From the NCBI GenBank assembly GCA_034437535.1, contig DAOTTZ010000029.1, forward strand, positions 6,367-70,366: DNA of 64,000 bases, in the 5' to 3' direction. The stretch comes from Anaerolineae bacterium (GTDB lineage Bacteria > Chloroflexota > Anaerolineae > Aggregatilineales > Phototrophicaceae). A program made the translations under genes and the position numbers. Shown piece by piece: positions 3,370 through 41,198 of the stretch (positions are counted from its first letter, which is position 1; the number at the start of each line of letters is the position of its first letter). Below the pieces are notes generated by a model. That model worked only from the letters and a program-made list of their open reading frames with translations. It was not told the DNA's origin and made no database searches.

Positions 3370-3945
3370 ATGGCAACCTATGCCGAGACCTTTCATGAGT
3401 GGATTGATGGAGTCGTGGTCAAGATGTCACCTGTCACGTTGCGTCATGCGCAAATCGTAGATTATCTGCGCCACCTGCTCCAGACCTATTGTTCGCTCCG
3501 TCCGGTGGCACAGGTGCTCAGTGAGCCATTTGTCATGCGGCTTGATCTGGGTGACCGCATCAGCCGCCGAGAGCCAGATCTACAGGTGATCTTAAACGCC
3601 AACCGTGCGCGAGTTCAAGCCACGTACACCGATGGCCCGGCAGATATTTGCATCGAGGTAGTCTCCCCTGGCAGTGTGGCGATTGACTACGGCGAAAAGC
3701 TAGTCGAGTACGAAGCGGGTGGCGTACAAGAATACTGGATCATCGACCCGGAACGGCAATTGTGCCACTTTTACCGCCGTCAGGGAGATTATTACCAACC
3801 GATCCCGCGTACTGATGCCCACACGACCCCGCTTTTGCCCGCATTTCGGCTGGATATTGCGACCCTGTGGGCGGATGATCTACCAGATATTCTGGATGTG
3901 GTCGAAATAGTGAAGGTCATGCTGGCGGAGGATGAAACCAGATGA
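3370..3945 (+). CDS. Uma2-family (DUF820) putative restriction-endonuclease-like protein
   Basis: HEWIDGVVVKMSPVTLRHAQIVDYL, PDLQV, EVVSPGS, EYEAGGVQEYWIIDPE. This is the typical PD-(D/E)xK-like Uma2 signature. Confidence 0.7.
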   Translation: MATYAETFHEWIDGVVVKMSPVTLRHAQIVDYLRHLLQTYCSLRPVAQVLSEPFVMRLDLGDRISRREPDLQVILNANRARVQATYTDGPADICIEVVSPGSVAIDYGEKLVEYEAGGVQEYWIIDPERQLCHFYRRQGDYYQPIPRTDAHTTPLLPAFRLDIATLWADDLPDILDVVEIVKVMLAEDETR

Positions 3946-9678: not shown

Positions 9679-9710
9679 ATGAGGCGGCGATGCAGGGCTG
9701 GCCGCCTCAT
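9679..9710. terminator. 10-bp perfect inverted repeat between convergent genes (candidate bidirectional terminator)
   Basis: ATGAGGCGGC-(12 nt)-GCCGCCTCAT. No clear U-tract on either side. Confidence 0.35.
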
Positions 9711-9721
9711 ATTGGCTGGGG

Positions 9722-10225
9722 CTAGCGCATGTACACGTAGATCGCGCCTTGCCAATCTTTGAAGACACGCTCCAGGTTGCGGCGGGCCTTGTGCCAGTAG
9801 AGCGCACCAATGCCAGAGCCGATGGGCGGCATCGCGATGCTGGTGATGTTATGTTCTTCCATCTGCTCACGCAGGCTCTGGAACGCGCTTTCAATCTGTT
9901 TACCCGATGCCATCGTCATGTACTTGTCTTTTTGCGTCCCCAACACGAAGACCATCATGCCATCACGAGTCTGGTATTGCATGGTCTGCCCCAGTTGGAA
10001 TTCGTTCGCCTCACACCGGCGCAGATATTCCGCGTAGAGATCGGGATATTTGTTGCGAAAGCGAATAGTCAGCTCGGTATTCAGTTCGCCTTCCGGGTGG
10101 CAACCAAAGGCCATCGCCTTGATTTTGCTCGTATCGGCAAACATATCACCGGTTTGATAAGTGATTGGTGTCTTGGGCCGGTTATCATTGCGATTGCGGG
10201 ATCGCCGGCGGCGTTTTTTCCCCAT
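9722..10225 (-). CDS. TARG1/DarG-like macro-domain protein with polybasic N-terminal tail
   Basis: By eye, ITYQTGDMFADTSKIKAMAFGCHPEG...MVFVLGTQKDKY...ITSIAMPPIGSGIGALYWH aligns with TARG1 ITYVKGDLFAC...YYLITKKRASHKPTYE...LSMPRIGCGLDRLQW. The first 20 aa are MGKKRRRRSRNRNDNRPKTP. Confidence 0.65.
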   Translation of the reverse strand: MGKKRRRRSRNRNDNRPKTPITYQTGDMFADTSKIKAMAFGCHPEGELNTELTIRFRNKYPDLYAEYLRRCEANEFQLGQTMQYQTRDGMMVFVLGTQKDKYMTMASGKQIESAFQSLREQMEEHNITSIAMPPIGSGIGALYWHKARRNLERVFKDWQGAIYVYMR

Positions 10226-10279
10226 ATCTATGTCTCCATTGTGCTATGCAGTCAGCCCCCATTATATACCGGCTTTGCA

Positions 10280-11710
10280 CTATTTGAGCAGGTAGGTCGA
10301 GACCTGGCCCTTGCCCTTCACCTCGACCGAATCGCGTGGTTCGAACTCGAATTGATCTTTGACTCGTTCATAAGTGGCTTGCGTCACCTGGATGCGGCCA
10401 GCGACGCCGGTCGTCTCCATCCGGCTGGCCGTGTTGACCGTATCGCCCCAGATGTCGTACATACGCTTGGTAGAGCCGATCACCCCGGCGATGACCGGCC
10501 CGGTGTTGATGCCGATGCGCAATTGCAGGTTATAATCACTCGTCTCGTTAAAGCTACGCACCGCTTTGAGCATGGCCTGGGCCATCCGCATGACAGCGTC
10601 AGGATGATGAGCCGATGAGCGCGGGATGCCACCTACCGCCATGTAAGAGTCGCCAATCGTCTTGATCTTTTCCACGTTATGCTGTTCGCTGATGTCATCG
10701 AACATCGAGAAGATCTTGTTCAACATCTGGATCAGATGATCGGGCGGCATGGTATCGACCAGCCGGGTGAAGCCGACCAGATCGGCAAATAGTACCGTCG
10801 CATCATCGAAGCTATCCGCGATCTGGGTTTCCCCTGCTTTGAGTCGATCCGCAATCGGTGCGGGGAGCATGTTCAACAACAAGACCTCGGATTTCGCGTG
10901 GGCTTCTTGCAACGCCAATTCAAGCTGTTTACGTTGGGTAATATCCTGGATGCTGACCGCCGCGAAGCTATGATCTTCCACGCTGATGTCTCCAAAGGGG
11001 TTAATCGGCTGGTATTGCACCGAGAAATGATGGCCGCGTTGCGCGTCTTTGCCTTCCCACTCGAATTCTAACCCCCTGGCAAGCTGATGCTTCGCGTTCG
11101 GCCAGATGCTCCGCATCTGTGCGGCGAAATCCGGGTAGATGTTCCCCAGGAGATCCGCCAGCGATTGATCGTGAGCATCGGACTGCCAGGTGAGGCCCCA
11201 CAATTCGATGGTGGCATTGGCCCGGATCACACGGCCTTCGTGGTTAATCAGGCAGATCAACTGTGAGATGCTATCGGTCGTCGCTTCCCATTCTTGCTTG
11301 GCCCGTTCCAGGTATAAGGACCGGTCTCGCAGGCGATTCTCCAACTTGACCACCCGCTGGCCGATGGCGATCCGCGCCCGCAATTCCGCCGCGTTGATCG
11401 GTTTCTTCATGTAATCATCCGCGCCCGCATCCAGCCCGTCCAGCACATCGCTCGCCTCACTTTTAGCCGTCACCATAATGATGTAACGGTAAGGCTCTGC
11501 GAAGTGTTCGCGCACATGCCGCACCAAGTCAATGCCGGGACGTTCGGGCATCATCCAATCGACAACCAACATCTGGATGGTTTCCGTTTCCAACATGCCG
11601 ATTGCTTCATCAACCCCACGTGCATGGACGGCCTCGTACCCGGAGATGCTTAAAATTTCCAACAACATGCGGGCATTCAGTTCATCATCTTCGACGAGCA
11701 ATATTTTCAT
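10280..11710 (-). CDS. response-regulator receiver-PAS-class III adenylate/guanylate cyclase
   Basis: N-terminal MKILLVEDDELNARML...LVVDWMMP receiver, central PAS-like region, C-terminal CHD (FADLVGFTRL...KIKTIGDSYMAVGG...GDTVNTASRME). Confidence 0.85.
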   Translation of the reverse strand: MKILLVEDDELNARMLLEILSISGYEAVHARGVDEAIGMLETETIQMLVVDWMMPERPGIDLVRHVREHFAEPYRYIIMVTAKSEASDVLDGLDAGADDYMKKPINAAELRARIAIGQRVVKLENRLRDRSLYLERAKQEWEATTDSISQLICLINHEGRVIRANATIELWGLTWQSDAHDQSLADLLGNIYPDFAAQMRSIWPNAKHQLARGLEFEWEGKDAQRGHHFSVQYQPINPFGDISVEDHSFAAVSIQDITQRKQLELALQEAHAKSEVLLLNMLPAPIADRLKAGETQIADSFDDATVLFADLVGFTRLVDTMPPDHLIQMLNKIFSMFDDISEQHNVEKIKTIGDSYMAVGGIPRSSAHHPDAVMRMAQAMLKAVRSFNETSDYNLQLRIGINTGPVIAGVIGSTKRMYDIWGDTVNTASRMETTGVAGRIQVTQATYERVKDQFEFEPRDSVEVKGKGQVSTYLLK

Positions 11711-11848: not shown

Positions 11849-13597
11849 TTATTCTAGCAGACGCCCGGCGACTTCCAGTTCTTCATTGTCTAGCCACGCC
11901 TGGAGTTCTTGCGGGATCGGGTGGGCATCTCGCCGGGAGAGGGTTAGCTCACCGCTTTGCGCGTCCAGCCGGGTGATGAAGTTGACCTTGAGCGCGTCGT
12001 CCATCTCCGGGAAGTCATCGCGGTTGTGGGCACCGCGTGTCTCGCGCCGTTCCAGCGCACCCAGCACCGTAGATTCTGCGGAGAGCAAGGACGAACGCAG
12101 ATCCAGCGCAATCGCAAGATCCTGATACCCTTCGGAAGTCGGGCGGACATCCGCGTTTGCGCTCCGTTCGCGCAGGGTAGCAATATCAACCAACGCCTGC
12201 TTGAGCTTATCCTCCGAACGGACGACGCCGCAGTTATCCCACATGACGTTACGCAGTTCACGTTGCATCGGGCGTACCATCTCGTCCCCGGCCTGCATGA
12301 TCGCGTTCAGGTCGTCATGAGCTTCGCGGATGGCGGCGTTACTGCGGTATTGCACTTCGAGATTCTTGGAGAAATCCGCCGCCGCTGTGCCGGTGCGCAT
12401 ACCAAATACCAGGATCTCCGCCAGTGAATTACCGCCCAGGCGGTTGGCCCCGTGCAGACCGCTGGTCACCTCCCCGGCGGCATACAAGCCTTCGATGCTG
12501 GTGGCGTGGGTTTCAGCATCGACGACAACACCGCCCATGCTGTAGTGGGCAGTCGGTGCGACTTCCATCGCGTCCTGGCTGATGTCGAGCATCTGTGTTT
12601 CCAGGAATTGCCGGTACATACGCGGCAGCTTTTCCAGGATGAAGTCTTTGTCACGGTGGCTGATGTCCAGGAAGATCCCACCGTTCGGTCCGCCGCGTCC
12701 TTCTTGGATTTCGGTATAATTCGCCAACGCGACTCGGTCACGGGTGGAAAGCTCCATGCGCTCCGGGTCATACTTGGACATAAAGCGGTCACCCGCACTG
12801 TTGAGCAGGTGACCGCCTTCCCCGCGCACGGCTTCCGTAACCAGGGTGCCGGCCATCTGCTCCGGGTAGACCATGCCGGTCGGGTGGAATTGCACCAGTT
12901 CCATATCGGCCAGTTCTGCCCCGGCCTGGAGCGCAAGGTACATCCCATCGCCGGTGTTTTCATCCCTGCGGGATGAACTGCGCCGCCACAGGCGCGTATG
13001 CCCGCCCGTCGCCAGGATCACGGCATCGGCCAGGTACACGGTGCGCTGGCCGCTCATGATGTCGAAGGACATCGCGCCGAAGCACTTACCGTTGCTCACC
13101 AGCAAGCGTGATACATATTGATGCTCGTGGATGTCGATGCCTAATTCCTCGACCTTATCCGCCAGCGTGTACAGGATGGCCCGCCCGGTATAATCTCCGG
13201 CGTAGCAGGTTCGGCGGTACTTGTGCGCCCCGAAGAACCGCTGGTCGATCTGGCCGTCTTCGGTGCGGGCAAATTCACAGCCCCAATCGGCCAATTCTTG
13301 CACCCGGTCGGGGGCTTCCTGCGTCATGATCTCGACAATGCGCGGTTCAGAGAGGAAATATCCCTCTTTCATGGTATCCACGAAGTGCTGTTGCCAGGTG
13401 TCTTGTGGATCTCGTGATCCAAATACGGCGTTGACGCCGCCTGCCGCCAGCACGGTATGCGCGTCTTTCTTCAGCCGCTTGCCGACCACGACGACATCAC
13501 TCCCAGCCTGATGCGCGGCAATGGCCGAACGCAAACCCGCCCCACCAGATCCAATCACCAGCACATTTGAAATATGGGTTCTGTGTTCAAAGGTCAT
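11849..13597 (-). CDS. succinate dehydrogenase/fumarate reductase flavoprotein-family protein (SdhA/FrdA/NadB-like)
   Basis: VLVIGSGGAGLRSAIAA FAD motif, DAHTVLAAGG (covalent-FAD His context), HYSMGGV, RETRGAHNRDDFP. GGAGTGA SD upstream. No SdhB/SdhC genes adjacent. Confidence 0.8.
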   Translation of the reverse strand: MTFEHRTHISNVLVIGSGGAGLRSAIAAHQAGSDVVVVGKRLKKDAHTVLAAGGVNAVFGSRDPQDTWQQHFVDTMKEGYFLSEPRIVEIMTQEAPDRVQELADWGCEFARTEDGQIDQRFFGAHKYRRTCYAGDYTGRAILYTLADKVEELGIDIHEHQYVSRLLVSNGKCFGAMSFDIMSGQRTVYLADAVILATGGHTRLWRRSSSRRDENTGDGMYLALQAGAELADMELVQFHPTGMVYPEQMAGTLVTEAVRGEGGHLLNSAGDRFMSKYDPERMELSTRDRVALANYTEIQEGRGGPNGGIFLDISHRDKDFILEKLPRMYRQFLETQMLDISQDAMEVAPTAHYSMGGVVVDAETHATSIEGLYAAGEVTSGLHGANRLGGNSLAEILVFGMRTGTAAADFSKNLEVQYRSNAAIREAHDDLNAIMQAGDEMVRPMQRELRNVMWDNCGVVRSEDKLKQALVDIATLRERSANADVRPTSEGYQDLAIALDLRSSLLSAESTVLGALERRETRGAHNRDDFPEMDDALKVNFITRLDAQSGELTLSRRDAHPIPQELQAWLDNEELEVAGRLLE

Positions 13598-14733: not shown

Positions 14734-15351
14734 TCACTTACGCCGCTTTTCAACAAATGCCAGGAACGGAGACGCCAGATCGTCGGCACTCGGCATCCCG
14801 CGTGAGAGGGCAACCTTGTTCGCTTCCTCAAAATCGGTATGCAAGCGCGTCATCTCTTTGATCTGGCGCGGGGCCGGTTCATGCCGGAACTGAGTCACTA
14901 GGATGGTATATAATCCTGCCGCCAGCACCAACCATTGCTTGTCACCCAATTTCTTGACAGTCGGCTCAACATGACGCCCCCGGCTAACATCGCCCGACAT
15001 ATCGTTGAGCAACGGGCCGATAGTCGCAATCGGCACATCCGGGTTGCCCAGTGTCTCGACGATGGTGCCACTCTTGGTGTGGTAGATCATCAAACCGACG
15101 GCCTTGCCCTGCAAGGCAGAGCGCATCGCGATGGTAGTGGTACCATCGCCGGAGACGAGATCCAGTTCACCTGAATCGCCGGAGGCTACAGCCAGGTTTG
15201 CAATCGTCAGTTGATCGGTATAGCGGGTATAAATAGCCTGGAATTGCTCCCGGCTGATCTGCCCGGATGCGAATTCCTGCACAGTGCGATTCAGCTTTTG
15301 CATGATCGTATCACGAAAAGCCCGGGCCTTTTCTTGTGCGTCTGTAGACAT
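14734..15351 (-). CDS. Roadblock/LC7 (MglB-like) domain protein with N-terminal helical extension
   Basis: 205 aa. Helical N-terminus, then TTTIAMRSALQGKAVGLMIYHTKSGTIVETLG...WLVLAAGLYTILVTQFRHEPAPRQI, consistent with a roadblock alpha/beta fold (inferred). Confidence 0.5.
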   Translation of the reverse strand: MSTDAQEKARAFRDTIMQKLNRTVQEFASGQISREQFQAIYTRYTDQLTIANLAVASGDSGELDLVSGDGTTTIAMRSALQGKAVGLMIYHTKSGTIVETLGNPDVPIATIGPLLNDMSGDVSRGRHVEPTVKKLGDKQWLVLAAGLYTILVTQFRHEPAPRQIKEMTRLHTDFEEANKVALSRGMPSADDLASPFLAFVEKRRK

Positions 15352-15431: not shown

Positions 15432-16046
15432 CTATTTTTGATAGCGTTTGCGGACGAAAACCAGAAACGGGAAGCCGAGGTCATCCGGGTTGATGCGGTC
15501 TGCCTGGAGCTTGCCAAAATTAGCCTGTTCGAAATCATGCTGAAGCCGCTCTAACTCACGGATTTGTGCCGGAGCGGGTTCATGCGCGAACAGCACGACC
15601 GTTGTCGTATATTTGCCCGGCAAGAAGACCAACCAGCGATCTTTTTCGATCTTTTCCATGCGCTGGTCTACCAATTTACGGGCCAGCATCTGCATACTGA
15701 TGTCTTCCAGTGCTGGTTGAATCAATTGAATCGGGATCTCAAAATCGCCCAGTAATTCCAGCACTGTCTCGGCCTTATTGTGGTAGACGATCAACCCCAG
15801 GGCGCGGCCCATATGGGCGTCACGGATGGCGATAGTCGGCGGGCCACCAGCGGCGATCTGCACCGCATCCGGGTTACCACTCATCAGCGCATAATCTGCG
15901 ATCTTCAACCGGTCGTTATAGCGTTTATACAAGACGTGGAATTGCTCTCGGCTGATGTTGCCTTCGGCAAAGTCATTGACCAGGCCCTGAATCTTGGCCT
16001 CAACCGCGTCTTTGAATTCCTGTGCTTTTTGTTTGGGGTCAGTCAA
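15432..16046 (-). CDS. Roadblock/LC7 (MglB-like) domain protein, tandem paralog
   Basis: 204 aa, ~35-40% identical to the downstream paralog over the full length (HEPAPAQIRELERLQHDFEQAN). TTG start with GGAGGA SD 9 nt upstream. Confidence 0.5.
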   Translation of the reverse strand: MTDPKQKAQEFKDAVEAKIQGLVNDFAEGNISREQFHVLYKRYNDRLKIADYALMSGNPDAVQIAAGGPPTIAIRDAHMGRALGLIVYHNKAETVLELLGDFEIPIQLIQPALEDISMQMLARKLVDQRMEKIEKDRWLVFLPGKYTTTVVLFAHEPAPAQIRELERLQHDFEQANFGKLQADRINPDDLGFPFLVFVRKRYQK

Positions 16047-19726: not shown

Positions 19727-21268
19727 ATGACCAAGAAAAAGCCTCAGGATCCCTTCATCGGTAAGACCCTGGGCGACTACAAATTAACCAGTGTGCTGGC
19801 AACCGGTGGTATGGCGCGTATCTACGTTGGTAAAGACATCAACCTGGGCCGCGAAGCCGCCGTCAAAGTGCTGACTCAAGAGATGATCGAGTCCGACTCT
19901 TTCCTGAGAGAACGCTTCCTGCGGGAAGCGCGGGCGGTCGCGGTGTTAGATCACCCCAACATCATCCCGATCTTCCAGTATGGTGAGGAAGAAGACTTTT
20001 ACTTCCTGGTGATGAAGTTGGTGCGCGGGCGAGATTTTGCCGACGAGATCGGCGATTTGCAACGCCAGGGCGAGCGCATGACGATCAAGCGCATGTTGCA
20101 CATTCTCTCTCAGACTGCCGCCGCGCTGGATGCCGCCCACGAAGCCGGGATTATCCACCGCGATGTCAAGCCGTCCAACATCTTGCTGGAAGAAGAGACC
20201 GACCGCGCCATCCTGACCGATTTCGGCCTGGTCTTACAACAGACCGAGATCGACAAGACGATGGGCACCGCCTTCGGCACGCCGCGTTACATCTCGCCGG
20301 AGCAAGCTCTCGCTTCGGAAAGTGTGGTACCCCAGAGCGATATTTATTCGCTGGGTGTCATCGTCTACGAGATCGTCACCGGCAGTCAGGTCTTCCGGGC
20401 GGATACCGCGATGCAGATCGCGCTGAGTCACATCAGCGAGCCGCCCCCCGCGCCAACCACCATCAACCCGGATATTTCAAAGGCGGTCGAGCGCGAGATC
20501 TTGAAAGCACTGGAAAAAGAACCGGAAAACCGGCACCAGACTGCGATGGAATTTGTCGAGGCGTTGGCGGCGGCCTATGGTGAAGAACTGGATATGCCCA
20601 CCAGTGTCGGCACCCGTTCCAGGCCGGCTAAACCCACCGCCAGCCCGCAAGCCACCGCACCGGCGGGTAGCTCCCCGCCTGCCGAAAAAGCTGGATCATC
20701 GCGCACGTTGTTATTTGGTGGCATTGGCGCGGTCATCTTGCTGGCGATTATCGGCTTGCTTGTGCTGGGTGGTGGCGGGGGCGATGATGACAACGACGCC
20801 CCCGACTCTGAGTTTGGCGGCACGGTGGTCGAAGTCGAGGCGATAGAGCCAGTCGTCGCGGAGGTCGTCACCGGCGAAGCGCAACCCCTGACCGCCAATT
20901 ACAACGGCTCGGCCTTCGCCCTGGTCAACACGGCGGAAGTCCCGGTCTCGTTGATCGACTTCCAGGCCGAACGCAGTGGTGCCCTCAGCCTGGAAGGCAC
21001 CCGCGATGTGAACGGGCAACGCCTGGAAAGTGGGGAATGCTTGCTCGTCGTTTCCGCCACGACCCGCGTCGAGATCCCCGAAGACTGGAATTGTACCGAG
21101 GTGCGAAACGAAATCGTGCGCTACCCGGAGTCGTTGTTCTTCCGGGAAGCAAGCGATACCTTCGGTGTGACCTTGCCCGACGAAACCGTCGTGGATTGCC
21201 CGACGACGATTGACAGCGCACAAACCTGTGATCTCAGCCTGCCAGCCATCGTCACGAGCGACGAATAA
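19727..21268 (+). CDS. Hanks-type Ser/Thr protein kinase with TM helix and extracellular C-terminal domain
   Basis: GGMARIYVG...AVKVL (Gly loop and Lys), HRDVKPSNILL, DFG, SPEQ. Pro/Ala-rich linker, TM LLFGGIGAVILLAIIGLLVLG, then ~150 aa extracytoplasmic domain. Confidence 0.9.
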   Translation: MTKKKPQDPFIGKTLGDYKLTSVLATGGMARIYVGKDINLGREAAVKVLTQEMIESDSFLRERFLREARAVAVLDHPNIIPIFQYGEEEDFYFLVMKLVRGRDFADEIGDLQRQGERMTIKRMLHILSQTAAALDAAHEAGIIHRDVKPSNILLEEETDRAILTDFGLVLQQTEIDKTMGTAFGTPRYISPEQALASESVVPQSDIYSLGVIVYEIVTGSQVFRADTAMQIALSHISEPPPAPTTINPDISKAVEREILKALEKEPENRHQTAMEFVEALAAAYGEELDMPTSVGTRSRPAKPTASPQATAPAGSSPPAEKAGSSRTLLFGGIGAVILLAIIGLLVLGGGGGDDDNDAPDSEFGGTVVEVEAIEPVVAEVVTGEAQPLTANYNGSAFALVNTAEVPVSLIDFQAERSGALSLEGTRDVNGQRLESGECLLVVSATTRVEIPEDWNCTEVRNEIVRYPESLFFREASDTFGVTLPDETVVDCPTTIDSAQTCDLSLPAIVTSDE

Positions 21269-40264: not shown

Positions 40265-40442
40265 AAGATCTCCTCTGCTTGACTAAACATTACGCTTGCC
40301 ATTATATGCCGGGGTTTGTTAGAAATGTATGATAGCGTAGGGTGATCGTAGCTTCGTTGTTGTGATAAATATCACTAGAGCCTGGCTCATAAAGCATTTA
40401 GAATAGACAAGCGAATGCGAAGGATAGTTGAGTATACATTAC

Positions 40443-41198
40443 ATGATGCGATTGACATTAGGGCTGGCGGTTCTCCTCTTGACGGTGGCCGCCTGTGGGT
40501 CAAGGGCGGTTGAACCCGTCACCAGTAACGAGGATTGGGAACCCGTCACCCGTGATTTTAACGGTTTTACGATGGTGCAGGTGCCGCCGGGCTGTTTCTC
40601 TATGGGCAGTGATTTTGGGCGGCGTGACGAACTGCCGGAACACGAAGTCTGCTTTGAGCAACCGTTCTGGATCGACCAGAACGAGATCACCAACGCTCAA
40701 TATGGCAGTGAAGGCCCCTTCCCAGGGGAAAACAAGCCACGCACCAATATGACCTGGGTCGAAGCACGCGATTTCTGCACAGCGCGGGGGGGGCGTCTGC
40801 CGACTGAGGCCGAATGGGAGTACACCGCCGCTGGCCCCAGTGATTGGATCTACCCGTGGGGTGGAGAACTGGACAACGAACTTCTGATCTTCGACCGGAA
40901 CAGCCCCGGCAACCCCGCTGATGTCGGCAGCCGGCCAGAGGGTACGTCGTGGGTCGGCGCGAATGACATGGCCGGCAACGTCTTTGAGTGGGTCTTGAGC
41001 GAATATGAAGCCTACCCCTATGACGTCAACGATGGCCGCAACGACCCCGCCAATGACCTGGCGCGGCGTGTTTACCGCAGTGGAATTTATAGTTATATTG
41101 ATTACGGAGTCGCCAACTCGATTCGCTTCTGGTTGCGCGGCTATAACCGTGATTGGTTTATCGGTTTTCGTTGTGTTGTTATTGAAGAGGAGCAGTAA
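40443..41198 (+). CDS. formylglycine-generating-enzyme (FGE/SUMF1)-family lipoprotein
   Basis: Lipobox LLTVAACGS. MVQVPPGCFSMGS, RLPTEAEWEY, YPWG, GNVFEWV, GFRCV. Start is ATG 40443 or the upstream TTG 40428. Confidence 0.8.
   Translation: MMRLTLGLAVLLLTVAACGSRAVEPVTSNEDWEPVTRDFNGFTMVQVPPGCFSMGSDFGRRDELPEHEVCFEQPFWIDQNEITNAQYGSEGPFPGENKPRTNMTWVEARDFCTARGGRLPTEAEWEYTAAGPSDWIYPWGGELDNELLIFDRNSPGNPADVGSRPEGTSWVGANDMAGNVFEWVLSEYEAYPYDVNDGRNDPANDLARRVYRSGIYSYIDYGVANSIRFWLRGYNRDWFIGFRCVVIEEEQ

Follow-up and report, generated by a model that had tools for sequence, protein, structure and literature searches.

At positions 9722..10225 of the minus strand, within the 64,000-nucleotide stretch of DNA that was analysed as a whole (the window), the list of window open reading frames gives a 167-residue ORF running from an ATG to a stop codon, which the coordinates include. 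It encodes a macrodomain protein (Pfam Macro, E=9.1e-9), and the four strings quoted from it in the preliminary description (ITYQTGDMFA, VFVLGTQKDKY, IAMPPIGSGIGALYW and KKRRRRSRNRNDNRPK) are all present in the translation. Six metagenome or MAG contigs from microbial-mat samples carry an identical 167-aa protein. A Shine-Dalgarno-like GGAG, read off the sequence at 10234..10237 of the minus strand, lies 8 nt 5' of the ATG and supports the annotated start, so that the polybasic N-terminus is very likely translated. This N-terminal tail (MGKKRRRRSRNRNDNRPKTP, codons 1–20, 10166..10225, minus strand) is predicted to be disordered and precedes the macro core (residues 21–165, 9731..10165, minus strand).

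As first stated, the neighbours are a convergent gene for a family-5 SBP and, upstream on the same strand, a gene for a REC-PAS-class III nucleotide cyclase (10280..11710, minus strand; Pfam Response_reg, PAS_4 and Guanylate_cyc). The cyclase gene is separated from the macro gene by a gap of 54 nt, in which a promoter scan found no sigma-70-like site, and might be its operon partner. Between the convergent SBP and macro genes, a hairpin with an 11-bp stem is predicted at 9679..9710; it is a weak candidate for a bidirectional terminator, the 76-nt segment having a z-score of only -0.9 and the terminator scan making no call.

The cyclase gene directly precedes the macro gene, in the same orientation, in four lineages (the window and the related loci L006, L008 and L012), with outer flanks that differ and with cyclases that are 48–52% identical. 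An orthologous family-III CoA-transferase (48–85% identity) adjoins or lies near the macro gene in six loci (L007, L008, L010, L012, L013 and L014), and no copy of it was found within the window. In L012, an upstream block of the window type is joined with the CoA-transferase downstream. These orthologous cyclase and CoA-transferase neighbours suggest a stable chromosomal gene passed on by vertical inheritance, and not a mobile toxin–antitoxin or defence cassette. The macro gene might be functionally linked to either the cyclase or the CoA-transferase.

Fold, class and the DarT partner

The protein had been described as a stand-alone macrodomain of the TARG1/DarG type, and Pfam, PADLOC, phmmer, AF2 and Foldseek all bore this out. 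Profile searches place it in the macro family, Pfam Macro (PF01661) passing its gathering threshold of 22 bits with a score of 35.7 (E=9.1e-9). The PADLOC DarG profile matches at 1.8e-23 and spans residues 21–165. A phmmer search of the PDB returned the macrodomain of TaqDarG (1.9e-11) and that of MtbDarG (3.4e-11), then TARG1 (about 1e-7). The AF2 model, built from a 36-sequence alignment, has a mean pLDDT of 92.7, with values above 90 over residues 21–165. When this model was compared with the PDB by Foldseek, the top 11 matches were all DarG and TARG1 structures with TM scores of 0.81–0.89, those of the core against 5m3e and 4j5q being 0.85–0.88. The target-normalised TM scores are 0.85 for DarG, 0.86–0.89 for TARG1, 0.83 for SCO6735 (5E3B) and 0.75 for Poa1p. 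A profile of the relatives searched against the PDB gave 1.5e-36 for DarG, 7.7e-17 for 5E3B and 5e-16 for Poa1p, and the order of the nearest structures is the same in phmmer, the profile search and Foldseek. The closest class in both fold and sequence is the ALC1-like class (TARG1, DarG and SCO6735), rather than the MacroD, PARG or viral classes. The 167-aa protein is thus almost certainly a stand-alone macrodomain of the ALC1-like class, and not a DarG antitoxin, in a derived clade that is undescribed in the literature searched.

The NCBIfam model of DarG (NF048014, 338 positions) matches at 7.7e-20 with 71.4 bits against a cutoff of 250 bits, and the match is confined to profile positions 30–146, which is the macro half only, without the C-terminal DarT-binding half. 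A PADLOC scan of the 33 DarT-sized window ORFs (complete list of 20 families) found no DarT, the unannotated ORFs within about 10 kb gave no ART or DarT match at E<=0.1, and no DarT or ART gene adjoins the macro gene in 10 related loci (L006–L010 and L012–L015 among them). The observation that no DarT flanks the gene, the neighbours being the SBP and cyclase genes, therefore stands for the window ORFs tested.

The accompanying premise, that this macro type is usually the antitoxin of DarTG, fails for the relatives of this protein. An exhaustive profile search yielded 3,872 relatives at E<=1e-3, with only 14 representatives at E<=1e-30, and a second, word-indexed search added 69 proteins. Among the best 154 of the 3,872 matches plus three references, the column of the catalytic Lys holds Gln in 123 sequences and Lys in 19, and most of these 154 relatives are single-domain proteins of about 145–170 aa. 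The absence of a DarT partner is ordinary for stand-alone macrodomains of this class, and a stand-alone Gln-type macrodomain without DarT is an already known kind, as exemplified by SCO6735 (PMC9411070). The window protein is neither a component of a toxin–antitoxin system nor a DarTG antitoxin.

Two other candidates were set aside during the comparison of loci. A 208-aa gene upstream of the macro gene in L007, L009 and L010, considered as a DarT for its size and position, encodes a HEAT-repeat protein (HEAT_2, 4e-31). The locus L011, considered as a positive control for DarTG, turned out to be phage-like and from Lachnospiraceae; its macro gene again stands alone, and DarT is absent.

Pocket residues and the nearest known enzymes

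The alignments place Gly140 at the position of the TARG1 catalytic Asp125, in agreement with the mapping made by eye. As a sign of altered activity, however, this Gly is uninformative: it is present in both aligned DarG macrodomains and in 147 of the 157 aligned sequences, and DarG lacks the Lys/Asp dyad, while SCO6735 has neither residue (PMC9411070). The substitutions that matter, judging from the alignments, are those that the preliminary description overlooked, namely Gln98, His43 and Asn49-Thr50-Glu51.

Both residues of the TARG1 dyad are absent, Gln98 and Gly140 occupying the columns of Lys84 and Asp125; in the phmmer and family alignments alike, Gln98 also takes the place of the catalytic Lys80 of DarG. 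The pair Thr97-Gln98 (9932..9937, minus strand), in which Gln98 corresponds to SCO6735 Gln85, is invariant in the seven closest homologues. In SCO6735, Gln85 is the equivalent of the catalytic Lys and is essential, the Q85A variant being inactive, and ALC1 homologues, too, typically have Gln in this column (PMC9411070). The substrate-binding loop 1 (residues 43–51, 10073..10099, minus strand) is remodelled, reading H-P-E-G-E-L-N-T-E against the canonical N-C-x-G-x-M-G-[AK]-G in ungapped alignments to 5m31 and 5m3i and in the column statistics. His43 replaces a conserved Asn (DarG N22, SCO6735 N27), and the Gly-[Ala/Lys]-Gly of loop 1 reads Asn49-Thr50-Glu51, of which Asn49 corresponds to DarG G28, Thr50 to DarG K29 and SCO6735 K34, and Glu51 to DarG G30 and Af1521 G42. 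In this numbering, DarG N22 results from subtracting 10 from the chain index of 5m31, to which the alignment has no gaps, and the SCO6735 residues were mapped indirectly, through DarG and motif spacing. The Asn+7/Asn+8 spacing agrees with N34/G42 of Af1521 and N24/G32 of CHIKV nsP3.

The elements on the ADP side are present and conserved across the clade described below: the adenine-contact Asp27, Gly136, Gly138 and Gly140 of loop 2, and the C-terminal aromatic Tyr165. Loop 2, which binds the diphosphate, comprises residues 133–142 (PPIGSGIGAL, 9800..9829, minus strand), with Gly138 aligned to TARG1 G123 and Gly140 to both TARG1 D125 and SCO6735 G128.

SCO6735 of Streptomyces coelicolor is a stand-alone enzyme that removes DarT-made thymidine-ADPr from DNA and has no cognate DarT, and homologues of it have been noted in Chloroflexi (PMC9411070). 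The window protein is likewise single-domain without a cognate DarT, and shares with SCO6735 (5E3B) the Gln at the TARG1-K84/DarG-K80 site, the Gly at the TARG1-D125 site and the fold (TM 0.83). However, the profile match of the window family to SCO6735 is weaker than that to DarG (7.7e-17 vs 1.5e-36). The SCO6735 subclass is defined by a mobile loop that is 5 residues longer than in DarG and TARG1 (PMC9411070), and this extension is absent from the window protein, in which the stretch from the K/Q site to position 112 counts 15 residues against 14 in TARG1 and MtbDarG, with a 1-residue gap relative to DarG. Mapped via DarG, Asn27, Lys34, Val25 and His24 of SCO6735 become His43, Thr50, Gly41 and Phe40, respectively. 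Furthermore, the loop-1 glycines are replaced and a polybasic tail is added, and the core has a net charge of 0, whereas the core groove of SCO6735 is electropositive. Given the missing +5 mobile loop, the missing Asn27 and Lys34 and the far better profile match to DarG, the window protein falls outside the SCO6735 subclass as strictly defined.

The DarG macrodomains (T. aquaticus 5M31/5M3E, M. tuberculosis 5M3I) are nearest in both sequence and structure. The mobile loops are nearly equal in length (15 residues in the window protein vs 14), and both have a PP[IL]GxGxGxL loop 2 with Gly at the TARG1-D125 site. In contrast, Lys80 and Asn22 of DarG are replaced by Gln98 and His43, and the window protein has no DarT-binding domain, no darT neighbour and a score far below the NCBIfam cutoff. 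Human TARG1 (OARD1, 4J5Q/4J5S) likewise stands alone, is about 150 aa long and shares the fold (TM 0.88), and it associates with RNA. It differs in its Lys84/Asp125 dyad, for which the window protein has Gln98 and Gly140, in retaining the loop-1 Gly-Ala-Gly and in having no polybasic tail. TARG1 reverses the ADP-ribosylation of nucleic-acid bases, and SCO6735, DarG and TARG1 all reverse uracil-ADPr on RNA (PMC13036486).

The MNT-loop clade and its polybasic tails

The loop-1 changes define a clade of 34 members including the window protein, here called the MNT-loop clade, which is monophyletic with no outsiders inside in a neighbour-joining tree. The names on its members or their contigs are only those of Chloroflexota, Anaerolineae and Phototrophicales MAGs. 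Beyond the clade, the closest relatives form a canonical Gln-type sister family (P0172–P0213) of about 156 aa and 34–43% identity, with the motifs GCNCxGSMGAG, LATQEDY and PRIGAGYGGL. These proteins are stand-alone with Thr-Gln, the named ones being 'macro domain-containing protein' or 'O-acetyl-ADP-ribose deacetylase', and the two members that carry names are from Chloroflexota MAGs. They have strict Asn43, Gly49 and Gly51, a basic core and a short acidic C-terminus, whereas the clade has replaced these residues and gained basic tails.

Column by column, position 43 is Asn in 47/47 sister-group sequences, against Asn in 26/34 and His in 7/34 of the clade. Position 49 is Gly in the sister group (47/47) and Asn in the clade (32/34), position 50 is Ala (40/47) or Lys (5/47) against Thr (29/34), and position 51 is Gly (47/47) against Gln (17 members), Glu (7) and others (10). 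Thr97 is present in 47/47 sister-group sequences and in 16/34 clade members; Gln98, found in 46/47, is kept in 13/34, the clade having otherwise Y, H, E, M or F. The net charge of the core averages +2.0 in the sister group and -2.3 in the clade. On the ADP side, conservation within the clade is nearly complete: Asp or Glu at position 27 in 32/34, P133 in 34/34, G138 in 34/34, G140 in 33/34, W144 in 34/34 and Y165 in 32/34. These patterns indicate that constraint has shifted from the classical catalytic constellation to the new loop, with the half of the pocket that binds the nucleotide being kept. Within the subgroup of seven that contains the window protein, His43 is found in 7/7 and Asn49 in 6/7, and Thr50, Glu/Asp51, Thr97 and Gln98 are essentially invariant. 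The clade is a natural experiment, in which residues that are essential by mutagenesis in DarG, SCO6735 or Af1521 have been replaced and the replacements are themselves conserved.

The 20-residue Lys/Arg tail pointed out in the preliminary description proved to be a real feature, an outlier in the window that is basic in five close homologues and enriched in the clade. It holds 10 K/R with a net charge of +9, and AF2 gives it no secondary structure and a pLDDT of 68–76. Among the 60 window ORFs it is the strongest polybasic N-terminus, with 10 K/R vs 5 in the next. The five closest homologues have basic N-termini of differing sequence (P0002–P0005 among those in which the basic character is kept), and a polybasic tail is carried by 19 of the 34 clade members but by only one of the 47 sister-group sequences (Fisher p=1.9e-8). 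Some members bear the tail at the N-terminus (P0001–6, 8, 9, 160, 161, 171 and 173), others as a long Arg/Gly/Ser-rich extension at the C-terminus (P0010–15 and P0164), which speaks for a function that depends on composition. With the tail counted, the mean full-length charge of the clade is +5.5. A tail that is kept in composition and switches terminus, on an acidified core, would fit a non-specific tether to a polyanion such as nucleic acid; nucleic-acid binding by the tail is plausible. It is the combination of clade-specific loop-1 rewriting with polybasic tails that is of real interest, a tail of the nucleic-acid type having been added to a core that is acidic on clade average, not basic.

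Putative function

Our best estimate is that the protein is a Gln-type ADP-ribosyl hydrolase that is held by its tail on its substrate, either ADP-ribose linked to nucleic acid or proteins bound to nucleic acid, a reading to which we give a probability of about 40%. A tethered, non-catalytic reader is the main rival, and two further explanations, a metabolite enzyme and an orphan DarG, carry less weight. From the residue mapping we infer that the macro core keeps the binding of the ADP part of an ADP-ribosyl ligand, via Asp27, Tyr165 and the intact diphosphate loop 133–142. Gln98 would position the distal ribose ring like Gln85 of SCO6735, rather than act as the Lys nucleophile of TARG1 and DarG, and would be flanked by His43 and the rebuilt Asn49-Thr50-Glu51 loop. 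The disordered +9 tail may lend a sequence-independent electrostatic affinity for DNA or RNA, and might offset the charge of the core, which is neutral here and, averaged over the clade, acidic, the cores of the canonical relatives being basic. The putative job is the housekeeping removal of ADP-ribose from nucleic-acid bases or nucleic-acid-bound proteins, which would shield the cell from ADP-ribosylating toxins, a role already suggested for SCO6735. A picture is emerging in which stand-alone macrodomains like DarG and TARG1 generally erase ADP-ribose from the bases of DNA and RNA, and may serve as a defence against such toxins (PMC9411070, PMC11833690, PMC13036486).

The hydrolase reading draws on the invariance of Thr97-Gln98 in the seven closest homologues and, by analogy, on the functional Gln at this column in SCO6735. 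By the same analogy, His43 and Thr50 argue against it, standing at the sites of N27 and K34, where the substitutions N27S and K34E left SCO6735 nearly inactive (PMC9411070). Glu51 occupies the site of Af1521 G42, at which G42E abolished ADP-ribose binding, although a Glu there is tolerable given compensating changes (PMC8319303). Moreover, a Glu next to the distal ribose would be expected to repel the DNA backbone, an argument made for G128E (PMC9411070). The absence of the +5-residue mobile loop of the SCO6735 subclass also weighs against the hydrolase reading, as does the fact that the genome has no known ADP-ribosyltransferase. Since Thr-Gln is unconserved across the wider clade (Gln 13/34), the function that its members share cannot be SCO6735-type catalysis. 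If active, the protein would represent a third catalytic solution in the ALC1-like class, beyond the Lys and Gln types, and could hint at a novel linkage or target of ADP-ribosylation in Chloroflexota. As a single small protein it is of moderate value, which depends on biochemistry.

A non-catalytic reader of ADP-ribose, or of a related ADP-nucleotide, that is tethered by its tail to nucleic acid or the ribosome, comparable to ALC1 and macroH2A1.1, is possible but in our view doubtful. The macro domain of ALC1 is a PAR reader. In favour of a reader, Thr-Gln drifts in the clade (Gln 13/34), as do positions adjacent to the Asn, whereas the sister group keeps Asn43, Gly49, Gly51 and Thr97 in 47/47 and Gln98 in 46/47. 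The ADP-contact elements are still conserved, the gained tails suggest localisation or scaffolding, and the Gln at the Lys column is one that ALC1 homologues typically share (PMC9411070). However, Thr97-Gln98 and His43 are invariant (7/7) in the window protein's own subgroup, which resembles a maintained active site, and the near fixation of Asn49-Thr50 (32/34 and 29/34) is equally compatible with a new catalytic loop. If inactive, the protein would be a bacterial case of a macrodomain turned tethered reader.

For the clade as a whole, a broader proposal can be made only tentatively, and we consider it rather unlikely in its entirety. It holds that a macrodomain lineage, known by name only from MAGs of Chloroflexota, has abandoned the DarG/SCO6735 constellation (Asn, Gly-x-Gly, Thr-Gln) and kept the ADP-binding half, that a new loop, Asn-Thr-(Glu/Gln), became fixed in it, and that disordered polybasic tails were acquired repeatedly, at one end of the protein or the other. 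Its members would be either hydrolases with a new catalytic loop and substrate linkage or nucleic-acid- or ribosome-tethered readers of ADP-ribose or another ADP-nucleotide, perhaps wired to the adjacent REC-PAS-cyclase gene.

It is improbable that the protein binds or hydrolyses a small ADP-metabolite with a retuned distal pocket, such as ADP-ribose-1''-phosphate (as Poa1p does), O-acetyl-ADP-ribose or another ADP-X, for example one that is related to CoA or is made by the pathway of the adjacent cyclase. The remodelling is indeed limited to the distal-ribose side with the ADP side kept, and Poa1p is a structural neighbour (TM 0.75; profile match 5e-16). In the Poa1p sequence as we take it to be, though, the columns of His23 and Ser30 hold Phe40 and Glu47 here, which counts against this explanation. 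The recurrent neighbours, CoA-transferase in six loci and the REC-PAS-cyclase directly upstream in four lineages, would favour it, but the synteny is explicable by vertical inheritance within one phylum, and the window has no CoA-transferase. Also against it, to our knowledge no macrodomain binds cNMPs or CoA, and a polybasic tail is of no obvious use to a metabolite enzyme.

Least probable by far is a DarG antitoxin, orphan or degenerate, that has lost its DarT partner or has it elsewhere in the genome: DarG macrodomains are the best matches by sequence and structure, but a protein of 167 aa and 71 bits against 250 has no C-terminal DarT-binding domain, the catalytic Lys80 is missing, DarT is found neither among the 33 DarT-sized window ORFs nor adjoining the gene in the 10 related loci, and in diverged genomes the locus shows synteny with genes of a housekeeping type.

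Two further neighbouring genes were considered and rejected as functional leads. The upstream FAD enzyme, considered as an L-aspartate oxidase that would offer a link to NAD biosynthesis, best matches fumarate-reductase/SdhA-type flavoproteins, with all matches below cutoffs. TIR (NADase) genes near the homologues in L013 and L015 were treated as coincidence; the window counterpart, which has no TIR, is an ORF with an FGE-sulfatase domain.

The cyclase–macrodomain gene pair

Immediately upstream of the macrodomain gene in the window, on the same strand, lies a gene encoding a REC-PAS-class III nucleotide cyclase (10280-11710, minus strand). Such a cyclase gene is also found directly upstream of the macrodomain gene, again on the same strand, in the related loci L006 (1441-2889), L008 (2-1033) and L012 (4416-5879). 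The gene pair recurs in four diverged lineages whose outer flanks are not alike, and the four cyclases share 48-52% identity. The cyclase and macrodomain genes may form an operon. In one sub-lineage (L007:2908-3534, L009:1598-2224 and L010:3892-4518), the cyclase is replaced by a 208-aa HEAT-repeat protein, the gene of which stands directly upstream of the macrodomain gene. The precomputed annotation gave no Pfam match for this protein, despite a HEAT_2 match at 4e-31.

Further upstream, the window encodes a flavoprotein of 582 aa (11849-13597, minus strand) that belongs to the fumarate-reductase/succinate-dehydrogenase/L-aspartate-oxidase superfamily. Its best match is TfrA-like, at 588 bits versus a cutoff of 718, and it falls below all equivalog cutoffs; its neighbours include no gene that is obviously for an Fe-S subunit or a membrane subunit. 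The flavoprotein gene is syntenic with the cyclase–macrodomain pair in L012. A tandem pair of paralogues of 205 and 204 aa without a Pfam family, at 14734-15351 and 15432-16046 of the window (both minus strand), is also present upstream of the flavoprotein-cyclase-macrodomain block in L002, L003 and L012.

CoA-transferase and TIR-domain neighbours

Beside or close to the macrodomain gene in six loci is a family-III CoA-transferase gene (L007:4445-5590, L008:1991-3136, L010:5450-6595, L012:7006-8151, L013:6614-7747 and L014:3657-4811), of which the window has no copy. These CoA-transferases are orthologous, at 48-85% identity, with succinate-glutarate and oxalate CoA-transferases as best NCBIfam matches, each under its cutoff. 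The CoA-transferase gene is beside or close to the macrodomain gene even where the encoded clade member shares no more than some 41-46% identity with the macrodomain protein of the window.

Genes for TIR_2-domain (NADase-type) fusion proteins, with TIR-WD40 and TIR-FGE-sulfatase architectures, lie at most two genes from the macrodomain homologues of L013 (2571-3968, minus strand) and L015 (6495-7991, minus strand), the latter sharing a 4-nt overlap with the 3' end of the macrodomain gene. The window has no TIR gene; its sole related ORF encodes a stand-alone FGE-sulfatase domain (40428-41198).

Another stand-alone macrodomain, of 162 aa, is encoded in a phage-like-looking region of a Lachnospiraceae MAG (L011:7884-8372); the catalytic-Lys site of this protein reads Ala-Gln (NLFAQERYG). 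Judged from ORF translations alone, no ART-like gene is evident among its neighbours.

Defence-type matches in the window

PADLOC, run on the whole-window and DarT-sized ORF sets, returned strong generic matches to PD-T4-6, ShosA, PsyrA and mad2, which look like shared domains rather than defence systems. The many PD-T4-6 kinase matches probably arise from a Ser/Thr kinase ORF (19727-21268, plus strand), those to ShosA and PsyrA probably from a DprA-like DNA_processg_A protein, and the three ORFs matching mad2 are probably methyltransferases. A Uma2-family putative restriction endonuclease gene (3370-3945, plus strand; 2.8e-27) adjoins genes for two response regulators that consist of REC alone and for proteins of 178 and 398 aa that carry no annotation.
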